Shown here: piece by piece, positions 5,738-21,096 of the stretch
Layout: every line of letters starts with the position of its first letter
How positions within the stretch are numbered: the stretch's first letter is position 1
Origin: Candidatus Latescibacterota bacterium
GTDB lineage: Bacteria; Latescibacterota; UBA2968; UBA8231
DNA length: 64,000 bases
Direction of reading: 5' to 3'
Assembly (NCBI GenBank): GCA_965206595.1
Contig: OZ242214.1
Coordinates: 3,872,001 to 3,936,000, forward strand
The notes under the pieces: model-generated
The model's input: only the letters and a program-made list of their open reading frames with translations
Database searches by the model: none
Told to the model about the DNA's origin: nothing
Made by a program: the position numbers and the translations under genes

Positions 5738-7393
5738 TTGACGCGACCCAGGTCGCCCTTCACTGCCAAGGGGTTCATCGTCGGGACCGTGTTCTCGGTC
5801 GCGGTGAGCCTGTGCGCGCCGTACGTCGTCTTCGTGCTCCAGGCCTCGGCCATGGGGATCAACAGCTCCTCGCCGGGGGCCATCTTTTTTCTCCTCGTCT
5901 TCGCCGTCAACGCCCTGCTCGGCCTGGTCGGGAGATGCTTCTCCCTCGGCCGGGGGGATCTCGTCCTCGTCTACGCCATGCTGATGATGGCGGTGACCGC
6001 GCCGACCTACAACTTCCTCAACTTCCTCATCGTCATAATCACCGGGCCGTACTACATGGCCACCGCGGAGAACGAGTTCGCCGAGATCTACCACCCCTAC
6101 ATCCCCGACTGGATGGTTCCGCAGGACCGCTACGCGATCTTCCATCTCTACGAAGGCCTGCCCCGCGGCGAGTCGATTCCCTGGGGAGCCTGGATCGAGC
6201 CGCTCGGCCACTGGTTCCCCTTCTACCTCGCGCTGAGCTTCATGATTTCTGCATGGCCGCGATCATGCACCGGCAGTGGTCGCGGCACGAGCGCCTCAGC
6301 TATCCGATGGTGCAGCTGCCGGCGCGCATGCTCGACGGGGCCGACTCCCCCGGCGGCCGCATCCTGCCCTTCTTCAGGAAGAGGGGGATGTGGCTGGGTT
6401 TCGCGATCCCCTTCACGCTTTTCAGCCTCACCGGGCTGAACCACTACTACCCGAGCATACCGGAGTTCCCCTTCTACCTCGGCTGGGTGAACTGGTTTCG
6501 AAGTATCGATGCCTGGGGCGAAGGAATCGCCCTGAGCTACGCCTGGCTCGGCTTCTTCTACCTCGTCGACCTCGACATCTCCTTCAGCATCTGGTTCTTC
6601 TACCTCGTGACTCAAGCTGCAGGGCGGGCTGTTCCGCCGTGTCGGGATCGCCAGCACCGAGCGGCTCAGCTATTTCGAGTACTCGCAGACCGCGGACTTC
6701 TCCCACCAGGCCGCCGGGGCCGTCTTCGTCTTCGTCCTCTACGGCCTGTGGATCGCCCGCCGCCACCTGCGCGACGTCGTCGTCAAGGCCTGGCGGCCCT
6801 CGCAGGGAGTGGACGACAGCGAAGAGCTTATGCCCTACAGGCTGGCCTTCTTCGGCACGATCGGCTCGGGGATCTTCGTCTGCGCCTGGCTCTGGCGGTC
6901 GGGCATTCCGCTGGTCGTCCTGCCGCTCTTCTTCGGCGTCTGCCTCGCGGCAACCTGGATGAACCTGCGCATGGGCTACACCTACGGCGGCAACAACCTC
7001 GGCACCTATCCGGGGTTCGCCTACAGCTGGAACTATCTGCTGTCGTGGATGCACAACCCGACCGCACCCGACCTCCGCGGCTGGGTGTTCACCGGCATCG
7101 GCGGGACCGTGGAAGGGCTCCTGCTCCTGGCGCAGAAGCGCTGGTTCTGGTGGCCACTTCATCCGCTGGGGTTCACCGTCGCCGTCGGCTGGCTCACCAG
7201 CGAGATCTGGTTCCCCGCCTTCCTCGCCTGGGGCCTCAAGGCGGTCATCTTGGGGTATGGCGGGATACGGGTCTACCAGTTCTTCAAGCCGCTCTTCCTC
7301 GGCATGATCCTCGGAGAGGTGAGCGTGGGCGGGTTCTGGGCCGTCGTCGATGCCATCGCCGGGGGCACGGGGAACGTCATCACCTACATGTGA
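5738..7393 (+). pseudogene. DUF6785/DUF6784-like polytopic membrane protein, frameshifted
   Basis: Conserved-looking segments lie in pieces separated by frame changes: IPWGAWIEPL, HRQWSRHERLSYPMVQLP, WWPLHPLG and YQFFKPLFLGMILGE. Frameshifts near 6247 and 6611; possible internal deletion near 6945. Confidence 0.75.
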
Positions 7394-7733
7394 GGGCGGG
7401 GGCCGGCACACTGAGAGAGATAGCCAAGCTCGGAGATCAATCTGCTCCTCGAGGCGTTTGCGCGAGCAATCAAGGCGCTGAACGCACCCACAGGGGCAAA
7501 GGTCCCTGAAGATCGTTTGCAGATCCTTCGGCAGGACTCTCAGTACGGTTAGTTAGGTTGCCGTTGGGCACGTATCCGCCCGGATCAGGATCCACCGCTC
7601 GTCTGCATGAGGACGCCCCGGAAGCCGGCGCCTAGGTCACGGACCTGGACGGGCCAACTCGTCCGCACGCGGACGGCCCCTGTCCAACAATCCGGGACCA
7701 CCTCATACAGCCAAGGCACTCCGCTGCGCTTTG

Positions 7734-8354
7734 TCAGCCCGCTTCTTCACCGAGCGTCTCCAAACAAGTCACCCATGCGTTAAATCGCTTACACTCCTGG
7801 CGTATCTTCGCCAGCGTGATCCATTTTGCCAAGACTGCGCCGTTCACCACCTTCTGGTATGTCGGGATCACTTTTTGGATTCTCTTGCTTGGTGCCGAAG
7901 TGTCGCTGTCGTTAATGTCCTCAGGCGTTACAAACCGATCTCTAATTCTTTTCAGCTGTTGTACGTTCGCGGGAGTCACACTTGGTATCTGCTCGAATGC
8001 TTCCACGTTTGAGAACAATAGCCCCTCAAATTCGTGCCTCTGTACGTATGGGTAGATCTTACAGCCGCCGCTGCTCGGCATCCTGTTCCCGACTTCCGCG
8101 CATACTCGCTGCTCAAGCTTAGCTACAGTCGCACCTTCCTTACCCTGGAATCCATAATAGTCGACCAGCGACGTGACCACGTCGTACGATCTGCATAAAA
8201 GACGCATCTCTCGGGCTATCTTATGCTCATTCACTCCGCCCCCAAGGTTGTGCGCATTCGCCAATACGCCTTTTTGACAAAGATGGCTGGCCAGAATTCG
8301 TTTGACGAACTCCTCTTCGGTCGGCCCCTCCACCAGGATCGCAACCCGGATCAA
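7734..8354 (-). CDS. DUF4276-family (TOPRIM-like) protein
   Basis: Motifs ILVEGPTEEEF, TSLVDYYG, HEFEGLLFS and PEDINDS..SAPSKRI. Likely TTG start at 8354 overlaps the ATPase stop (TTGA). Confidence 0.85.
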   Translation of the reverse strand: MIRVAILVEGPTEEEFVKRILASHLCQKGVLANAHNLGGGVNEHKIAREMRLLCRSYDVVTSLVDYYGFQGKEGATVAKLEQRVCAEVGNRMPSSGGCKIYPYVQRHEFEGLLFSNVEAFEQIPSVTPANVQQLKRIRDRFVTPEDINDSDTSAPSKRIQKVIPTYQKVVNGAVLAKWITLAKIRQECKRFNAWVTCLETLGEEAG

Positions 8355-10324
8355 GGGCGCCCTCCAAGCAGGTTCTTTTGCCACAGTTCGCTGGGCAGAA
8401 AACCTTCATCAAGCCATTCTATATAATCATCCGAGGCGAGCGAGCGTGCCCGTGTGCCGTTGTTGTCCGCTTCCAGTACTACCACTTCATCCAGCTCGAA
8501 AGCGTCTATGAGCAACGGCGACTGCGTCGCGACCACGATCTGCCTCTCGTACGACAACGCCTTGATCATCCCTCCAACCAGTGCAATACCCGCCGGATGA
8601 AGTCCGAGCTCGGGCTCGTCGAGAAGTACGAGAGTCGGCAGAATTTCGGACGGGAGGTTCAACATAGTAACCAGCGCGAACAACCGTAACGACCCGTCCG
8701 ACGTCAGATGGGCGCCCAAGGTCTTGTCGCCGTACGTGGACACCCATCGCAACGCGACCTTCCCCCGGACCTCTTGAAGATCGAACCGATCAAACCCCGG
8801 CAATACGCGACCAATGTGATCGCAAATCAGCTCGTATCGCCGCCGGTCCCTTCGCTCCAGGTGCAACAGCACCGCAGCCAGATTGCGGCCGTCACTCGCC
8901 AACCGTTGATAGTCCTGAATATCACAAGGTTTCTTGAATCCCGAGTCTTTTGATGTGTCATGGAATTGGTACACCCGACACTCTCCGAGCAGACGCACGA
9001 TATTTCCTGCCACGCGCGAGTGGATTGTCGCGGGGCGGGGCCGATGGCCGACCTCGACTAACCCCGCCTCGACGCCCCCCGTGCTGCTCTCGATCGGCTG
9101 CCAGTCCGCATTTTCGTGCTCCTCATGTCGCAAGCGGCAGGCTTCGTCCGCAAACAACAGCCGATCTTCGCTTCCGTATTTGAGCGAAAACCGATAGTCG
9201 TAGTAGTCCGCTTCTCCGACCCGTAGGGTAACTTCAACCTCAACGCGCGGCGTTGCCTTGCTGCCGTTGAATAGCTGATCGTCCCCGCCGCCGTGTTCGC
9301 CCACAAAATTTGCCAAACGGCGGGATCCCAGCATGCGATGCATCATCTCGAAGAGCCGGATGACGTTCGACTTGCCGCACCCGTTAGGTCCGATCATGGC
9401 CACCAAGTGCCCCAGCCCGCCCAGTTCCACACACCTAAGAGAGCGGAACCCTCGCACCCGAACAGACTCCACGCACGCGCCCCCGCCGAAGTCGTCCGTG
9501 CCATCGGCTTGAATGATGTATCGAAAGCGCAGTTCGTCGATGTCGTCCTCCCGCGTACTATCCTTCACGTCCAGCACCTGCACTGCGGCGTAGCAGCCGT
9601 TGACGTTACGCAATACGACAATCTCACCCTCGCGGGGTGTCCGTGTACGGCCCCTGTAATCGAGGAACCGCGCGTCAATGATCTGCTCTATCGACGTATA
9701 TCCTGAGGCCAGAGCCACCCCTTCGATCGACGGCGCGTCATTGTAGACATGGATGCTGGTGGAATTGCATTTACTCCACATCGTCTCGAACTTCAGTTCG
9801 CCTCGCCCGATAACGAAATGCTCGACACTGTCGTAGTCCAACTCCGCCTCGCCCACCAGCGCCGTCAGCTGCGGATATTTGGCTCCGCCAGCGCCCCCAC
9901 CTTGCGCCCGATGGTCAAAGAGCTTTTCGCCGATGCCTTCGGCTATTTGCGTAAGCGCGTATTCGTCGGCTCCTTTGCAATCAGTGCCCGAGGGTAATCC
10001 ATCCGGAACGGGAGTGTCATCGAAGCGCAACGGCACCACAGCGCCACTCCGTTTTGAAATCTCAGAGAGGATCAAGCCCCTTTCGTCTCGTTCCCATGCC
10101 CGGTCAAGGTATTGTCTGGATAACAACAAGACGACGAGCTCCGCTCGTTCCAGACCCGCATTCCGGTCTGCATCCGCGATGCGCGGCGCCAACTCGGAGT
10201 TCTCGAAGTAGTCGCAAAAGACCGCTACCCCCTTACGTTGCAGCTCTCGCGTCAGCGTCTCAGCGACGGCGCGTTGTTCGCGAACAAACAAGAGCGCTAC
10301 TTCATGGACCTTGGTAGCGGCCAT
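8351..10324 (-). CDS. Fusion of a TIR domain, an unknown beta-rich domain and an ABC-type (AAA_21-like) ATPase
   Basis: TIR-like N-terminus (VAETLTRELQRKGVAVFCD...LSRQYLDRAWERDE...VPLRFDDTPVP). ATPase motifs: Walker A GPNGCGKSN, signature TSDGSLR, Walker B/D-loop LLDEPELGLHP, and VATQSP. GGAG precedes ATG 10324. Confidence 0.85.
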   Translation of the reverse strand: MAATKVHEVALLFVREQRAVAETLTRELQRKGVAVFCDYFENSELAPRIADADRNAGLERAELVVLLLSRQYLDRAWERDERGLILSEISKRSGAVVPLRFDDTPVPDGLPSGTDCKGADEYALTQIAEGIGEKLFDHRAQGGGAGGAKYPQLTALVGEAELDYDSVEHFVIGRGELKFETMWSKCNSTSIHVYNDAPSIEGVALASGYTSIEQIIDARFLDYRGRTRTPREGEIVVLRNVNGCYAAVQVLDVKDSTREDDIDELRFRYIIQADGTDDFGGGACVESVRVRGFRSLRCVELGGLGHLVAMIGPNGCGKSNVIRLFEMMHRMLGSRRLANFVGEHGGGDDQLFNGSKATPRVEVEVTLRVGEADYYDYRFSLKYGSEDRLLFADEACRLRHEEHENADWQPIESSTGGVEAGLVEVGHRPRPATIHSRVAGNIVRLLGECRVYQFHDTSKDSGFKKPCDIQDYQRLASDGRNLAAVLLHLERRDRRRYELICDHIGRVLPGFDRFDLQEVRGKVALRWVSTYGDKTLGAHLTSDGSLRLFALVTMLNLPSEILPTLVLLDEPELGLHPAGIALVGGMIKALSYERQIVVATQSPLLIDAFELDEVVVLEADNNGTRARSLASDDYIEWLDEGFLPSELWQKNLLGGRP

Positions 10325-10549
10325 ATTGCTCCCTTTCCCTGACTGGATTTCCGGCACGTCGGGACGAACAACGCAGTCATAGCGAATTGCAAACCCCTAT
10401 AGCTGTCAGCACGTCTTTGGCTCCCAGATCCTCGTTCCCGAGGGCAAACAGCCCCTCAACCAATGGTAACATGTAGGTGGCAGCCCTGCCGGTCCTGCGA
10501 GAACACCAGCCGGAAGATGAACAGCACTATCAACCACGTGTTCAGCACG

Positions 10550-10593
10550 TGCGGGCCGAATTCGAACCTGCGACCTTCAGGTTCTGAGCCCGA
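10550..10593 (-). other. Degenerate 3' half of initiator tRNA-Met (att-like remnant)
   Basis: Minus strand reads TCGGGCTCAGAACCTGAAGGTCGCAGGTTCGAATTCGGCCCGCA. This closely follows the tRNA-fMet anticodon and T arms (TCGGGCTCATAACCCGAAGGTC..GGTTCAAATCC). The 5' half and CCA are absent. Confidence 0.7.
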
Positions 10594-10706
10594 ACCCTAC
10601 CCCTCAAAGACCGTACAGCCGCGCACAGTAATCCCCACAGGATCTTCCGCTTCGCCTCCTTGGAGACGCCTTCGACCTCCAGGAACTCTTCCACGGCGTG
10701 GGAGAG

Positions 10707-10759
10707 TATAGGCAAAACAAGGCATCTCTTTGACTATAGGCAAAACAAGGCACCTCTTT
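10707..10759. repeat. Tandem direct repeat, 25-bp unit with 28-bp period
   Basis: TATAGGCAAAACAAGGCA(T/C)CTCTTT at 10707-10731 and 10735-10759. Confidence 0.9.
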
Positions 10760-11229
10760 TTGCCCTCCATCAAGGCGCATTCAGTAGTCCTGTACATGTG
10801 AGTATGCGGGGACTTGGCCTGCAAGATGACCCAGGGCAGGAGATCAGATCGACCTGCTCTTCGCAGTGCTGCGCGAACTCTCAGGCGAGACAAAATCAAC
10901 TCAGTACGGGACGGAGCACTGGTCGGTGCCGTGTTGGCTGTGTTCCTGCGAGTCGTCTACGGCTGATATCGCCGTCCGGCACGGGAGCAGTGCTACGCCA
11001 ATGGCCGCTGCGTGTCGGTGCGAGGTGCAGGCCGAGCTGCCGAATCGCTGTATCTGGTAATGGAAACCGAATTCTGATCGTGGCGGGCCATGCCCCGGTA
11101 AACCGCCGACCTCCGCAACGGCGAAATCGAGTGGCAACACGAACCTGGATGGCTAGATTATTGCCTGCGCCACCCCAGGGTGGTTGCCAGTGACGCGCAG
11201 AGGATTCACACCCCCCGCTGTTTAAAGAC

Positions 11230-11850
11230 GACAGGAACGCTCCTGCTTGTCTTGATTGCTTCCGCTCTCGGTGTGGGTGACGCCTGGGGGTTATCGTCCA
11301 CCGCATCGGAACGCCCTTCTCTGCCACGGAAAGGGACAGCCTGGAGCGCCTCGGCATCGACTTCCGCGAAATCGACTGGACGGCGTCGCTGCTACTCGCT
11401 GCGGTGGAGCAGGATCACTGCAAACCGGTTCATTGCAACCCAACTTTTTCGCCGCTGACAAAGATATCGCCGCCACGCTTCTGATCAGAGACGGTTTCGT
11501 GGGAGTCAGCGCTCCCAGGTTGATCCGGGACCACCGGGTCCTGGTGATGGTCGATCAGGATCCGACCACGGCTTTTTCGTGGCCGGTCATAGCTCCAGAG
11601 AGCTTCGACCAAACCGTCGATCGAACCCCATGGGCTGTGTATCTGGATCTGGGCGGACCTTTCCTCGTGAGAGAAATAAGGCTGCGCCATCTGGCGGACA
11701 GGCCGGACCATTTCCTGGAGGGGTTCACACTTGCCATCAGTGACATGCACGGTGGCGCAGGTCAAAGAAACCACTTCGCGTGAGATCCGCGTGGTCCCGG
11801 CGGAGAGTCCATCCGGGCCGCGGCCTGCCGTGGCTCGCCTGCGGGGCAAC
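11230..11850 (+). pseudogene. Fragment of a secreted protein, frameshifted and truncated
   Basis: A signal-peptide-like LLLVLIASALGVGDAWG and protein-like segments (MVDQDPTTAFSWP...VYLDLGGPFLVREIRLR) lie in different frames. There is no complete ORF. Confidence 0.4.
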
Positions 11851-11877
11851 TATATCAACGGGCTGTCAGACGGGCAC

Positions 11878-12399
11878 TCACTCCTCGTCTCTGGCGCAGA
11901 AGCGAAGCGCATACAGGTCGGCGTCGTACATGACAAACCGCAGACGCACCGGCCGCCCGGCCAGGGGACCCACACCGGCCCCCGATTTCCACTGCACCGC
12001 CAGGTCCGTCTGGTCCTGAAACAGCTCCGCCGAATCCGCTAGCGACAGCCCTGGGAAGGGCCTGCCGTTTTCGTCCTGGACCTCGACGCGGATGCTGCCG
12101 GCCGCGGAGGTGGACATGTTGAGCCGCAGCTGATCGCCGCTGAAGATCAGGGGTTTTGTGATGAACCGGCCGCCGCCGTAGGGCGCCTGCACCGAGGCGA
12201 AGCCATCGAGGCGCAGCGTCAGGCGGCGGATGCAGGAGGTGGGCAAGCGCCAGTGCTCGGTCATGTAGAGCGACAGCTCGGCCGGTCCGGTGCGCACCGG
12301 TTGGTGGAGGACCTGGCGGGCGTCCTGCAGCTCGTCGATGAGGCGGCGGTCGAGCAGCAGCTGGCGGTCGCAGCCGATTGATATGGGTGTTTCCTGCAT
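11878..12399 (-). pseudogene. Glycosyl-hydrolase-like propeller protein with its central domain deleted in frame
   Basis: AGGAGG RBS. The N-terminal PISIGCDRQLLLDRRLI...VLHQPV is joined directly to the family's C-terminal part (ELSLY...LRLDGFASV...GRPVRLRFVMYDADLYALRF). Only 173 aa long. Confidence 0.65.
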
Positions 12400-13489: not shown

Positions 13490-16030
13490 ATGACCAACGC
13501 GAAGATACTGATCGTCGAAGGGGACAAAGCCGTTGCCGCACACCTGCAGGAGTGCCTGCAAAACCTCGGATACACGGTGTGCGCCGCGGTTTCCCGCGGC
13601 CGCGAGGCGGTAGAGAAAGCCGCGGCCTCGCCGCCCGACCTGGCCCTGGTCGACCTGGGGCTGGAAGGGGAGCTCACCGGCCCGGAAACAGGCGAGCGGA
13701 TCGGGAGCAGGTTCGGCGTTCCGGTGGCGTACCTGATCGACGAAGCCGGGGAAGACCTGCTGCAACGGGCTCAGGCGACCGCTCCCTTCGGCTACGTGCC
13801 GATGCCCTTCGACGAGCGCCAACTGCACCTGTCCATCCTGACCGCCCTCTCCCTGCACGAGAGGGAAAGCAGGCACAGGGAGACGGAGACCCGTCTGAAG
13901 CGAATCATCAGGAAATACAGGGACCTCACCCGGCTCTTGAAAACCGTGTTCGACGGCATGAGCGAGGGCGTGGTTGCCGTCAGCGAGAAGGGCGTGCCGC
14001 TGGTCAACAACGAGAGCGCGCGGAGAATGGCCGGAATCTATCCGAGGGAGGAAGACATCAGCAAATGGCCCGAGAAATACGGTGTCTTTCAACCCGATGG
14101 TAAAGCGGTCCTCAGCGCGGACCGGAATCCCCTGTTGCTGGCTCTGAAGGGCCAGGCCACGGACGGGGTGGAGCTGTTCATCCGCAACGAACTGAAGCCG
14201 GAAGGTTTTCACGTCAGCCTCAACGGCAGGCCCCTGCTGGGAAAAGCAGGGGTTACGAGAGGGGCCGTGGTCGTCCTCCACGATACCACCAGGCTCAAGC
14301 AGACGGAAGCCCAGCTGGAACAGACGATTGCCCGCCTGCAAAACCAGGCCCAACTCATGGACACCTTGTTGAACAGCATGGGAGAGGGCGTGGTCGCCAT
14401 GGGGGAAGACGGGACCCTCCTGTTCTACAATGAGAGCGGGCGGCAGATAGGCGGCGATCATCCGCTGGAGGAAGATATCGCCAAGTGGCCCACGACATAC
14501 GGCCTTTTTCAACCCGATGGAGAAACGATCCTCCCCGAGGAGCTGAATCCGCTGTGGCTTGCCGTGAAGGGCCGGGCCACGGACGATGTCGACCTGTTCA
14601 TACGCAACGAGCAGAGGCCGGATGGTGTCTACGTCAGTGTCACCGGCAGGCCCCTGGTGAGCAGTCCGGGCGCTCCGAAAGGGGGAATGGTCGTCATCCG
14701 CGACGTCACCCGGGTCAAGCTGGCGGAAGCCGAGCTCGAACGGACGCTTGCCCTGCAGCAGGAACAGACCCGGCTCATGGAGACCACCTTCAAAAGCATC
14801 AGCGACGGCATCGTCGTCGCCGACGCGGAGGGGAAATTCCTCTACGTCAATCCCGGTGCCGAACAGATCGTCGGCATGGGCATAGAGGACGGGCCGCCGG
14901 ACGAGTGGGCAGGGAAGTACGGTGTTTGCCATCCCGACCGGAAGACACCGATGAAGACGGAGGATCTGCCGCTGATCCGCGCCATCCACCGCGGCGAGTC
15001 CACCGACGAGGAGGACATCTTCATCCGCAATCCGAAGAATCGGAAGGGCGTCTACATCCGGGTGAGCGCGCGGCCGCTGCTCGACAAGATCGGCGGCATC
15101 CGGGGAGGCGTGATCATCTTCCGCGACGTCACCCGGCGCAGACTCGCCGAGGAGGCGCTGGCGAGGGCCTTCGCGCAGGGGCGGTCGGAGATCGTCGAAA
15201 CCATTCTCCACAACATCGGCAACGCCATCAACAGCGTCACCACGGGCATCGAGACCGTGCGCCGGAACCTGGTGAACGACCCGGTCGGCCGCCGTCTCTC
15301 CGCCCTGGCCGCGGCGGTGCGGGAGCACCGGGAGGACTGGCTCGACTACATCGCCAACGACCCGCAGGGCCGCAAGGTGATGCCCTTCATCGTCGAGCTC
15401 GCCGAAGGCTCTTCCAGGCGCAACGAAGAGCTGATGAAGACGGTGGGCCGCGTCCGCGACCGGGCCAACCATATCGCCGACATCGTCCGCACCCAGAAGG
15501 GGCTGGCCCGTCCCGGCAGCATGGATCGCAAGGACATCGACCTGCCCAAGGCGCTCGCCGGCGCCGTCAGGGTGTTGAGGGACTCGCTCGATCAGAGGGG
15601 CATCCAGGTCGCCATCGACTGCGACGGCGCGCCCCGGCGGATCCGCATCCAGGAGAGCCAGTTCCACCAGATGCTGGTCAACCTGGTCAAGAATTCCTTC
15701 GAAGCCATCGACGAGCTCGCCGCCGCGCAGGGACTCGACGACACCCCCCTCATCCGCATCAGGGCCAGCGCCGGGGAGGAATTCCTCGACCTCGAAGTGG
15801 CCGACAACGGCATCGGCATCGGCAACAAGGACACCAAGGAGCTTTTCTCCCCCGGCTACACGACGAAACAGTCGGGGAGCGGGCTCGGTCTCCATTCGGC
15901 CGCCAACTTCGTCATTGCCATAGGAGGGCGCATTCAGCCGTTGAGCGAGGGCACCGGAAAGGGAACGACCATGCGCGTGACGCTGCCGCTTTCCGCGGTC
16001 GCTCCCCACGCAACCGCGGGAGCCGATTAG
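13490..16030 (+). CDS. Hybrid sensor histidine kinase (REC-PAS-PAS-PAS-HisKA-HATPase)
   Basis: REC motifs ILIVE and DLALVD; three PAS repeats (M/IS.GVV..D); H-box ILHNIGN; N-box NLVKNS; VADNGIGI; GSGLGL. Confidence 0.92.
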   Translation: MTNAKILIVEGDKAVAAHLQECLQNLGYTVCAAVSRGREAVEKAAASPPDLALVDLGLEGELTGPETGERIGSRFGVPVAYLIDEAGEDLLQRAQATAPFGYVPMPFDERQLHLSILTALSLHERESRHRETETRLKRIIRKYRDLTRLLKTVFDGMSEGVVAVSEKGVPLVNNESARRMAGIYPREEDISKWPEKYGVFQPDGKAVLSADRNPLLLALKGQATDGVELFIRNELKPEGFHVSLNGRPLLGKAGVTRGAVVVLHDTTRLKQTEAQLEQTIARLQNQAQLMDTLLNSMGEGVVAMGEDGTLLFYNESGRQIGGDHPLEEDIAKWPTTYGLFQPDGETILPEELNPLWLAVKGRATDDVDLFIRNEQRPDGVYVSVTGRPLVSSPGAPKGGMVVIRDVTRVKLAEAELERTLALQQEQTRLMETTFKSISDGIVVADAEGKFLYVNPGAEQIVGMGIEDGPPDEWAGKYGVCHPDRKTPMKTEDLPLIRAIHRGESTDEEDIFIRNPKNRKGVYIRVSARPLLDKIGGIRGGVIIFRDVTRRRLAEEALARAFAQGRSEIVETILHNIGNAINSVTTGIETVRRNLVNDPVGRRLSALAAAVREHREDWLDYIANDPQGRKVMPFIVELAEGSSRRNEELMKTVGRVRDRANHIADIVRTQKGLARPGSMDRKDIDLPKALAGAVRVLRDSLDQRGIQVAIDCDGAPRRIRIQESQFHQMLVNLVKNSFEAIDELAAAQGLDDTPLIRIRASAGEEFLDLEVADNGIGIGNKDTKELFSPGYTTKQSGSGLGLHSAANFVIAIGGRIQPLSEGTGKGTTMRVTLPLSAVAPHATAGAD

Positions 16031-17088: not shown

Positions 17089-19209
17089 TTGACCAACGCC
17101 AGGGATACTGATCGTCGGATACTGATCGTCGACGGCGACGAGTGCGGCGCCGCGCACCTCGAAGAGTGCCTGAAATCCCGGGGATACACGGTGTGCGCCG
17201 CGGTTTCCAGCGGCCGCCGGGCCCTGGAAAGAGCCGGGGCCGCGCGACCCGACCTGGCCCTGGTCGATCTCGGGCTCGAAGGGGAGCTGACGGGCCCGGA
17301 AACGGGGGAGCGGATCGGCAGCCGGTTCGGAGTTCCCGTGGTCTACCTGACCGACGAGGCCGATGGAGAGCTGCTGCAACGGGGGCTGGCGACTGACCCG
17401 TTCGGCTACGTGCTGAGGCCGTTCGAAGAGGGCCAGCTGCACCTGAACATCCAGGCCGCCGTCTCCAGGAACGAAAGAGAACGCAGCCATGGAGAGGCGC
17501 GGGGGCTGGAACGGACGCTCGCCCTGCAGCAGGAACAGGCCGGCCTCATGGAGACCATCTTCAGCAGCATCAGCGACGGCGTGGTGGTCGCCGACGCAGC
17601 GGGCAGGTTCACCCTGTTCAACCCCAGCGCCGAACAGATCGTCGGCGTCGGCATGCTGGATCTGCCGCCCGAACGATGGACCGGGAGATACGGGGTCTTC
17701 TATCCCGACAAGACGACCCACGTGCCCACGGAACGGCTGCCCCTGGTGCGCGCCATGCGGGGCGAGGCGACCGACGGGATCGAGCTGTTCATCCGCAACG
17801 AGAAAAGGCCGGACGGGGTGTACATCAGCGTCAGCGGGCGGCCGCTGCAGGCCGAGGTGGAGGGGCACGGCGGCGGCGTGATCGTGTTCCGCGACGTCAC
17901 CCGCCAGAAGCAGGCGGAGGCGGAACTGGCGAAGACGATGGCGGAGCTGCGCAATCAGAACGAGCTCATAGATACCGCGTTCAGGAGCATCAGCGACGGC
18001 ATCGTCGTCGCCAACGCCAAGGGGGAATTCCTCTACGTGAACCCCGGCGCCGAGCAGATCGTCGGCATGGGCGCGACGGATGCGCCGCAGGGGGAGTGGG
18101 CCGAGAGGTACGGCACCTATCATCCCGACCGGGAAACACCGATGAAGACGGAGGATCTGCCGCTGATCCGCGCCATCCACCGCGGCGAGTCCACCGACGA
18201 GGAGGACATCTTCATCCGCAATCCGAAGAAGCCGAACGGCGTCTACATCCGGGTGAGCGCGCGGCCGCTGCTCGACAAGGTCGGCGGCATCCGGGGCGGC
18301 GTGATCATCTTCCGCGACGTCACCGAGCGCCTGCTGGCCGAGGAGGCGCTCGCCCGGGCCTTCGCGCAGGGGCGGCTGGAGATCGTCGAAACCATTCTCC
18401 ACAACATCGGCAACGCCATCAACAGCGTCACCACGGGCATCGAGACCGTGCGCCGGACCCTGATGAACGACCCGGTGGGCCGCCGTCTCTTCGCCCTGGC
18501 CGCGGCGGTGCGGGAGCACCGGGAGGACTGGCTCGACTACATCGCCAACGACCCGCAGGGCCGCAAGGTGATGCCCTTCATCGTCGAGCTCGCCGAAGGC
18601 TCTTCCCGGCGCAACGAGGAGCTGATGAAGACGGTGGACCGCGTCCGCGACCGGGGCAACCACATCGCCGACATCGTCCGCACCCAGAAGGCCCTCGCCG
18701 GTCCCGGCCTGGCTCGCAAGGACATCGACCTCCACGGGGCGCTCTCGGGCGCCGTCAGGGTGTTGAGGGACTCGCTCGACCAGAGGGGCATCCAGGTCGC
18801 CATCGACTGCGACGGCGCGCCGCATCCAGGAGAGCCAGTTCCACCAGATGCTGGTCAACCTGGTCAAGAATTCCTTCGAAGCCATCGACGAGCTCGCCGC
18901 CGCGCAGGGACTCGACGACACCCCCCTCATCCGCATCAGGGCCAGCGCCGGGGAGGAATTCCTCGACCTCGAAGTGGCCGACAACGGCATCGGCATCGGC
19001 AACAAGGACACCAAGGAGCTTTTCTCCCCCGGCTACACGACGAAACAGTCGGGGAGCGGGCTCGGTCTCCATTCGGCGGCCAACTTCGTCATCGGCCTCG
19101 GAGGGCGCATGCAGCCGTTGAGCGAGGGCACCGGAAAGGGAACGACCATGCGCGTGACGCTGCCGCTTTCCGCGGTCGCTCCCCACGCAACCGCGGGAGA
19201 AGGGCCGTG

Positions 19210-19210
<1 letters not shown>
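17089..19210 (+). pseudogene. Second hybrid sensor kinase (REC-PAS-PAS-HisKA-HATPase), frameshifted by an 11-bp deletion
   Basis: Paralogue of 13490-16030 that lacks CCCCGGCGGAT (15632-15642 in copy 1) at about 18820. The HATPase continues in another frame (18848-19210). Confidence 0.85.

Positions 19211-21096
<1,886 letters not shown>

Follow-up and report, generated by a model that had tools for sequence, protein, structure and literature searches.

Introduction

Several described defence systems combine an ABC ATPase with a TOPRIM-type nuclease, among them PARIS (AriA and AriB) and the OLD and Gabija systems, and a pair of this general kind is the subject of the present study. It is encoded at positions 7734 to 10324 of a 64,000-nucleotide stretch of the genome of a Candidatus Latescibacterota bacterium (contig OZ242214.1, positions 3,872,001 to 3,936,000 of the forward strand; this whole stretch is called the window below) and consists of an ABC ATPase with two additional N-terminal domains, a TIR domain and a second domain that we call X, followed by a DUF4276 protein. 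An initial annotation of the sequence had proposed the two genes as a new anti-phage system.

The closest counterpart, HEC-01, is presented in the accessible portion of a preprint as a "Hma-embedded candidate", in which an ABC ATPase is accompanied by a TOPRIM-like protein with the same metal site as BpOLD (bioRxiv 10.1101/2024.01.29.577857). DUF4276 has been placed in the Toprim superfamily, with Mad4 named as a homologue, in the available section of another source (PMC12065111). The MAD3-MAD4 complex of the Pseudomonas aeruginosa MADS system was solved as a 2:2 heterotetramer, in which two MAD3 chains pair head to head with two nucleotides held between them and a pair of MAD4 subunits sits astride this dimer; according to the available excerpts of that study, ATPase activity and Mg2+-dependent plasmid cleavage were seen only in the assembled complex, and MADS defence requires MAD3-MAD4 (PMC13662399).

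Results

The core pair corresponds to HEC-01 and carries a TIR-X extension

The features of the locus are as follows (coordinates are those of the window):

8351..10324, minus strand: TIR-X-ABC ATPase gene (HEC-01A with an N-terminal extension), 657 amino acids plus stop; from the open reading frame (ORF), its translation, Pfam and PADLOC.
9890..10309, minus strand: TIR domain (residues ~6-145; W77 and E81 at NADase-site positions); from Pfam, an AlphaFold2 (AF2) model, VIA-align and a family profile.
9473..9877, minus strand: domain X (residues ~150-284; unnamed, modelled as all-beta with a HmuY-like fold); from the AF2 model, VIA-align and Foldseek.
8354..9472, minus strand: ABC ATPase core (residues 285-657); from Pfam, PADLOC, motifs and a tree.
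7734..8354, minus strand: DUF4276/HEC-01B partner, a putative TOPRIM-like nuclease, 206 amino acids plus stop with a TTG start; from Pfam and PADLOC.
8351..8354, minus strand: TTGA start/stop overlap; from the sequence.
7407..11877, no strand: low-GC indel island carrying the ATPase/DUF4276 pair; from the GC profile and from its presence in genomes G000 and G001 and absence from G002.

The ATPase frame runs on the minus strand from an ATG at 10324 to a TGA at 8351, with a GGGAG at 10333-10329, 4 nt 5' of the ATG. The DUF4276 frame, on the same strand, extends from a TTG at 8354 to a TGA at 7734, such that its start codon and the stop codon of the ATPase gene form the 4-nt TTGA overlap (8354-8351) already noticed in the initial annotation, an arrangement that suggests translational coupling of the two genes. 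A longer DUF4276 frame is open from a GTG at 8384; the DUF4276 profile begins at residue 8 of the TTG form, and conservation in the family begins at "IR.AI.VEG".

Pfam placed AAA_21 at residues 307-607 of the ATPase (5.9e-27) and DUF4276 at residues 8-199 of the partner (8.3e-43), the assignment that had been made for the smaller protein. In PADLOC, the HEC-01A model (PDLC04175) matched the ATPase at 5.6e-101, aligning residues 285-657 with profile positions 6-362 of 363, and the HEC-01B model (PDLC04188) matched the adjoining same-strand partner at 1.1e-56; lower-scoring matches of the ATPase were mad3 (3.3e-25), AriA (1.2e-24), Old (1.2e-16) and GajA (4.8e-12). Every one of the 25 PADLOC matches listed for the whole ATPase protein starts at residue 284 or later, and the TIR-X part alone gave no PADLOC match at E<=0.001, ThsB included. 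On these profile matches the core ATPase-DUF4276 pair is not new and corresponds to the PADLOC candidate HEC-01. The earlier claim that no named system has this architecture therefore held only in part: because the core is HEC-01, a named candidate does match it, and what no PADLOC model covers is the TIR-X extension. These N-terminal 284 residues are the new part of the pair, and since no listed HEC-01A or other PADLOC match reaches into them, the ATPase with its three domains is a new variant.

The ABC motifs are complete, as had been annotated, with Walker A (G312, N314, G315, G317, K318, S319), the signature S542-D543-G544..R547, Walker B D569-E570-P-E, H576 and T600-Q601-S602, and these residues are the same in 73-75 of 75 aligned TIR-less HEC-01A relatives. 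Similarly, the partner keeps all columns that are invariant across 44 aligned DUF4276 partners (E9, G10, T12, F16, G39, D65, E108, E110, P144, E145, P155 and K168), E9 being the Glu of the VEG motif (44/44). All sequence features listed in the initial annotation thus hold, with E-values well outside chance. GTDB yielded 564 confirmed genome loci; in 70 of the best 80, a same-strand DUF4276 ORF adjoins the ATPase, and the ten loci lacking it include cut contigs and partial ATPases; the ATPase and DUF4276 genes are a conserved unit. When the longest DUF4276 ORF is taken, a 4-nt overlap results in 17 of these 70 relatives and the -33 form, which is also the longest-ORF form in the window, in another 17. 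PDB sequence searches with the DUF4276 profile and with the ABC core returned no match, and a complex prediction from full ATPase and DUF4276 alignments, run without controls, gave 0.32, 0.00 and 0.00 and bears neither way.

No additional Pfam domain was found in long ORFs upstream of five other HEC-01A genes (L050, L025, L049, L031 and L034), and we therefore detected no other N-terminal HEC-01A fusion. TIR-X was found in none of nine viral loci, five of which encode a full TIR-less HEC-01A at 32-35% identity; these five lie on IMG/VR viral contigs (L116-L120), which fits prophage carriage of HEC-01-type systems.

The locus resembles HEC-01 in its strong matches to both models, in its same-strand overlapping two-gene layout and in an ABC domain that nests within TIR-less HEC-01A. 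It differs in the 284 additional N-terminal residues, beyond the reach of any HEC-01A model, and in that no Hma or restriction-modification (RM) system surrounds the window pair. MAD3-MAD4, a relative of HEC-01, likewise joins an ABC/P-loop ATPase to a DUF4276 Toprim-like protein, and its published 2:2 complex is the best mechanistic template for the window pair. However, the window ATPase is not a MAD3 equivalog (NCBIfam NF047739, 97.8 bits against a cut-off of 420), MAD3 has neither TIR nor X, and no mad1-mad8 operon, methylase or MADS match was present among the window neighbours scanned. The resemblance to PARIS lies in the pairing of an ABC ATPase with a TOPRIM nuclease and in the weak AriA match, but the partner in the window is DUF4276 and not DUF4435, and AriB is absent from its six PADLOC matches. 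By contrast to OLD and Gabija, to which the weak Old and GajA matches point, the ATPase and the nuclease are encoded by separate genes, the partner is not an OLD-TOPRIM and no GajB helicase is adjacent.

The TIR domain keeps the Trp/Glu motif of AbTir

Pfam recognized TIR_2 at residues 9-108 of the ATPase protein (5.3e-10), and an AF2 model of residues 1-288, built from an alignment of 42 sequences, shows a TIR domain with a mean pLDDT (predicted local distance difference test) score for the model of 85.2. Comparison with solved TIR structures by VIA-align gave Z scores of 12.7 (5for), 12.5 (C. elegans TIR-1), 12.2 (PdTIR), 12.1 (SARM1) and 11.3 (AbTir), the alignments covering 118-136 residues at 2.6-3.6 A. 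A Foldseek search of the two-domain model against the PDB also listed NAD kinases; with a root mean square deviation (rmsd) of ~19 and a TM score of ~0.2, we rejected these rows as an artefact of the two-domain model.

The profile of the TIR-X family matched "NAD(+) hydrolase AbTIR" at 1.1e-14 to 6.4e-15, with the family motif W-t-n-h-E aligned with WTNYE of AbTir, whose Glu we take to be the catalytic residue. In the window protein this motif is the W-E-R-D-E stretch W77..E81, in which the initial annotation had correctly seen a retained Glu. Position 81 is E in 19 of 22 fused homologues, D in two (P0021 and P0026) and displaced by a gap in one (P0020), and W77 and R82 are invariant among them. 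The alignment indicates that the Trp/Glu pair of the AbTir-type NADase site is kept as W77/E81. The likeness to AbTir, PdTIR and BtpA thus comprises the TIR fold, the AbTir profile match and the aligned motif; the window TIR differs from these enzymes and from ThsB in being fused to X and an ABC ATPase. Thoeris is further set apart by the lack of a ThsB match in the TIR-X part and of any SIR2/SLOG family or ThsA-type partner among the neighbours scanned.

Domain X is modelled as a HmuY-like fold and recurs on defence effectors

Residues ~150-284, annotated earlier as a middle domain of ~125 amino acids without a known family, indeed have no Pfam, PADLOC or NCBIfam model and no name in any source. 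X is joined to the first ABC strand by only about five residues (GGGAC). Modelled alone with AF2, it gave eight strands with a pLDDT of 90.3 and a predicted TM score of 0.85. Among 48,161 representative chains, six reached Z>=8 against X in VIA-align, the next standing at 6.7: the best was BfrB (8b6a; Z 9.4, rmsd 3.3, 117 residues aligned), followed by PinO (8.9), HmuY (8.6), BF2707 (8.6), the T. forsythia HmuY analogue Tfo (8.5) and a DUF4466 protein (8.3). Foldseek likewise returned BfrB (E 9.6e-4, probability 1.00) and HmuY (9e-3), and in the ESM Atlas X retrieved 30 unnamed clusters, the nearest named families being DUF4466 (0.81) and HmuY (0.75), which serve as a lead only. On these models, X is an all-beta domain of HmuY-like fold.

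X shares this fold with the HmuY-family haemophores, BfrB and DUF4466 proteins of Bacteroidota at Z 8.3-9.4 over 106-117 aligned residues, but is only 11-16% identical to them, is shorter (~125 against ~180 amino acids), gives no Pfam HmuY match and occurs in a cytoplasmic, defence-linked setting. No conserved His pair is evident in X: the near-invariant columns of 35 X domains contain no His, in a comparison that did not map the HmuY haem-ligand positions residue by residue. Searching PDB sequences with the X profile gave chance-level matches only (E 0.13 and 0.35), and the BFVD viral fold library contained nothing at E<=0.001.

An exhaustive HMMER search with residues 1-288 against 1.84 billion representatives yielded 1619 matches at E<=1e-3 and 339 at E<=1e-10, TIR-only matches included. 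Architectures were counted in the best 150 representative matches, 55 of which were scanned with Pfam and 16 with PADLOC. X was found in 149 of the 150. In 51 it follows a TIR of this type, always in the order TIR then X, and many of these proteins measure ~280-293 amino acids; in the other 98 this type of TIR is missing, and X lies at the C-terminal end in 74 of them. Ten proteins contain two to five copies of X, with five in tandem in one protein of 864 amino acids. The fusion partners include other TIR/SEFIR domains (bSEFIR model 1e-37 to 1e-77, X not being covered by the model), Ser/Thr kinases (PD-T4-6 model 1.1e-68), AbiH, AbiJ_NTD4, caspase, cytidine deaminases, FGE-sulfatase and pentapeptide repeats, as well as matrixin-type peptidases, PKD and cadherin/RTX proteins, which look secreted. 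Representatives fused to kinase, AbiH, caspase, cytidine deaminase and matrixin domains are P0086, P0150, P0164, P0167, P0114, P0125, P0140, P0158, P0044 and P0045. Such a range of fusion partners is easier to reconcile with a general module for binding or sensing than with a catalytic domain.

The TIR-X-ABC fusion is recurrent but rare

When residues 1-288 were searched against 5.8 billion proteins through a word index, 28 clusters were returned, 24 of which are TIR-X-ABC proteins or truncated forms thereof at 46-94% identity; in the remaining four (P0025 and P0027-29) TIR-X is joined to a HsdS-like tail, to DUF2513 or to unknown regions. Of the 41 related genomes, three encode the complete TIR-X-ABC protein, namely G000, G001 of the same genus (97%) and G030 of another family of the same class (81%). 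It occurs once among the best 80 GTDB loci, in a metagenome-assembled genome (MAG) of the Verrucomicrobiae, and is absent from the best 80 of 567 metagenome loci; a metagenome scan with peptide words from the window TIR-X gave 93 pattern matches, none of which was confirmed. The fusion is real, recurrent but rare. We found neither a TIR-fused HEC-01/MAD3-type ATPase nor domain X described in a full-text literature search of a collection that lacks most subscription-journal papers; preprint supplements may list such variants.

A quick maximum-likelihood tree of 99 ABC domains groups 23 of the 24 fused ATPases in a single clade (Shimodaira-Hasegawa-like approximate likelihood ratio test, SH-aLRT, 100) whose stem measures 0.6, and the placement of P0026, beside this clade, is unresolved. 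The clade nests among TIR-less HEC-01A proteins of Chloroflexota, Acidobacteriota and others. Mapped on this tree the fusion needs a single change, with only 78% support for the one branch that separates all 24, and the topology is compatible with a single origin of the fusion inside TIR-less HEC-01A. The fusion is selected, not accidental. G001 additionally encodes a plain TIR-less HEC-01A (G001:C10:815561-816676, 55% identity) beside its fused copy, so both forms can coexist in one genome.

The pair lies on a small low-GC island

As the initial annotation had remarked, the pair is embedded in DNA of lower GC content, 0.54-0.62 across 7501-11500 compared with 0.63-0.73 on either flank. G001 is collinear with the window at 95-99%. 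In G002, of the same genus, synteny ends at window position 7406 and resumes at 11878, with ~110 bp between, and for this reason we delimit 7407-11877 as an indel island of ~4.5 kb. G030 shares only 7743-10335 at 83% nucleotide identity, exactly the two genes, which indicates that they move as a cassette. The pair is horizontally acquired on a small island. Flanking direct repeats of the island were not found, and the small ORFs in the rest of it (10325-11877) matched no family in Pfam, PADLOC or NCBIfam. A promoter scan detected no sigma-70-like site in 7300-12000.

Further observations concern the DNA of the island. Two 28-nt direct repeats, 93% identical, lie in tandem at 10704-10759, ~400 nt upstream of the ATPase start, and could be an operator or the remnant of a recombination site. 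ARAGORN called a tRNA-Leu(CAG) at 10547-10617 on the minus strand; at 71 nt it is too short for a class II tRNA and Rfam reported no tRNA at E<=1 in 7300-12100, which makes a false call or a fragment probable. Given this missing Rfam support, we gave up the notion of an integrative element targeted to a tRNA, or of a decoy tRNA. A repeat measuring about 109 nt (7470-7578), immediately within the left boundary of the island, has ten further copies elsewhere in G000 at 71-77% and copies in G012 at 79-84%; its folding is unremarkable (z -1.3 and -1.8), and it may be an element of the repetitive extragenic palindrome (REP) or miniature inverted-repeat transposable element (MITE) type. A segment of ~330 bp (10943-11269), whose ORFs have no family match, is missing from the otherwise collinear G001, and several places in G002 match window ~11286-11494 at 70-75%.

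Gene neighbourhoods of the fused pair and of free TIR-X

In the window the pair is surrounded by genes for a TonB receptor, RsmB/F, PhyH, DUF6785, a PAS histidine kinase, a sigma-54 activator and unassigned small ORFs. The PAS histidine kinase (13490-16030, plus strand) and the PAS/sigma-54 activator (17089-21096, plus strand) share ~1.1-1.4 kb at 88-89%, which looks like a recent partial duplication. In G030 the cassette adjoins a HmaA fragment (PDLC00659, 2.5e-177), insertion sequence pieces, a C-terminal fragment of DruE (2.6e-64), a PD-(D/E)XK nuclease and an IS110 transposase. In the Verrucomicrobiae MAG, the copy stands out as an insert of low GC3 (0.40, compared with about 0.7), with a PDC-S24 Fic protein (2e-191) on one side and transposases on the other.

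Free TIR-X proteins, an unnamed family of ~285 amino acids, show 28-50% identity over both domains and the same domain order. Unlike the window protein, they lack an ABC ATPase domain, are encoded on their own or attached to other pieces, and have type I RM genes as neighbours. All five free TIR-X genes inspected (two in G029 and one each in G012, G115 and G110), at four loci, accompany a type I HsdR and a fused HsdM-S, and in G012 and in G029 one of them directly overlaps the end of HsdM-S. Other genes nearby encode PDC-S70, AbiLi/PDC-M38A with DUF3226/PDC-M38B, Fic, HigB/HTH, DUF4365, FRG-TPR and C5-methylase/HATPase proteins, and a SEFIR-X protein of G030 adjoins cas1/cas4. The AAA_21 ATPases (AbiLi model 1.2e-57, PDC-M38A) with DUF3226 (PDC-M38B), at 12628-14306 of L093 (G029) and 11282-12963 of L094 (G012), are situated ~0.5-3 kb downstream of free TIR-X inside the type I RM loci, a second kind of ATPase/small-partner pair near TIR-X.

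Discussion

The interpretation towards which we lean, by a narrow margin and by analogy with MAD3-MAD4, is that the two genes form a HEC-01-type anti-phage module, in which an ATPase dimer with DUF4276 nucleases has acquired an NAD+-degrading TIR arm regulated by X; the anti-phage function proposed in the initial annotation is supported to this extent. A HEC-01-type ATPase would have captured a mobile two-domain TIR-X cassette at its N-terminus. Two ATPase chains may then form a head-to-head nucleotide-sandwich dimer with two DUF4276 subunits on top, as in MAD3-MAD4, to give an assembly-dependent Mg2+ nuclease. Because TIR NADases such as SARM1, AbTir and the plant TIRs need self-association to form their active site, NAD+ hydrolysis could be turned on by ATP-dependent head engagement or by a higher assembly on a phage cue. 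Dimerisation driven by ATP, or an assembly of higher order set off by infection, would juxtapose two TIRs into a composite NAD+-hydrolysing site, so that the response to infection would combine nucleic-acid cleavage with NAD+ depletion, the two effectors already proposed in the initial annotation. X, located between TIR and ATPase, could be a ligand- or target-binding element that gates the TIR, and probably gates many of the other effector domains fused to it in the same way. Within this scheme, that the proteins form a complex, what the nuclease cuts, that the TIR hydrolyses NAD+, what X does and what triggers the system are all inferred.

Several observations weigh against the scheme. Glu81 is not invariant, being Asp in two of the 22 fused homologues and lost to a gap in one. 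The TIR of the fused clade is divergent, scoring 40 bits in Pfam compared with 55-69 for most free TIR-X relatives, and the "LWGK" that follows strand 2 is replaced by "LAPR", with a mean pLDDT of 46 for residues 41-50. No defence-type Pfam family was found in the 19 neighbouring ORFs scanned within 1-21096, and the six of these within about 4 kb of the pair had no PADLOC match. In addition, the available part of one preprint reports no protection by HEC-01 in an E. coli assay (bioRxiv 10.1101/2024.01.29.577857), and the MAD3-MAD4 authors, in the accessible excerpts, could not tie ATP hydrolysis to cleavage (PMC13662399).

We more tentatively entertain a wider role for X, as a widespread sensor or regulatory module gating TIR, SEFIR, PD-T4-6-type kinase, AbiH, caspase and deaminase effectors, with the window protein as a case in which one ATP-driven sensor fires both a TIR NADase and a nuclease. 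We consider domain X the most promising lead, ahead of the TIR-ABC fusion itself.

A different division of labour, which we regard as rather unlikely, would leave the HEC-01 module intact and make the TIR a weak or dead assembly or scaffold element, such that TIR-X is a sensor head controlling a sole effector, the DUF4276 nuclease. The divergence of the TIR, its replaced LWGK region with low pLDDT at 42-49, and the retention of Glu81 in only 19 of 22 homologues, whereas W77 and R82 are invariant, all speak for such a head, as do the HmuY-like fold of X, which is a ligand-binding fold, and the position of X as a C-terminal appendage of enzymes in most X-only representatives (74/98), as expected for a sensor. 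On the other hand, W77 and E81 align with the AbTir site, position 81 is E or D in 21 of 22, and the TIR must be the effector in free TIR-X proteins, which contain no further enzymatic domain.

Less probable still, a free TIR-X gene and a HEC-01 pair might have merged by loss of a stop codon or intergenic stretch, the two halves acting uncoupled. Free TIR-X is indeed common (51 of the 150 best representatives), lies in G012 and G029 within about 2-3 kb upstream of an AAA_21-DUF3226 pair in the same RM-embedded locus, and is also fused to unrelated N- or C-terminal pieces (P0025 and P0027-29). The shortness of the X/ABC linker, the retention of the fusion down to 46% identity across at least two phyla, and the long stem of the fused-clade ABC domain, which suggests co-adaptation, speak against it.

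A function outside defence, either as an addiction or stabilisation (toxin-antitoxin-like) module or as a DNA-repair-type ATPase-nuclease on a small mobile island, appears very improbable. The solitary island with no defence neighbours among the window ORFs scanned, the Pfam naming of AAA_21 for AbiEii/type IV toxin-antitoxin systems and the negative HEC-01 test would fit it. However, HEC-01 is defined by its embedding in Hma systems and the G030 copy adjoins a HmaA fragment; E. coli B carrying a HEC-01 was protected from one or more of T4, T5 and T7, as stated in the available portion of a second preprint (bioRxiv 10.1101/2024.09.26.614923); MAD3-MAD4 is needed for MADS defence; and TIR-X and X accompany RM genes, CRISPR cas1/cas4 and known defence effectors. 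Finally, an assembly chimera or sequencing artefact joining unrelated genes, a possibility that the initial annotation had itself raised, is excluded for practical purposes by the uninterrupted architecture in 24 clusters from several sources, in G001 and G030, and on a Verrucomicrobiae MAG chromosome.

HEC-01 and MAD3-MAD4-type ATPase-nuclease pairs are abundant, and a natural variant with a TIR and a binding domain offers a handle on their trigger and on the role of ATP: because TIR activity needs self-association, the TIR could be a built-in reporter of ATPase dimerisation or assembly. If the protein is an X-gated TIR NADase on an ABC ATPase-nuclease, it would be the first ABC-ATPase-gated TIR. 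X itself is found on six or more types of defence effector, yet Pfam, PADLOC and NCBIfam lack a model for it. A name and an identified ligand for this domain could show how a whole group of defence proteins encoded by single genes senses infection, and would improve the annotation of defence systems.

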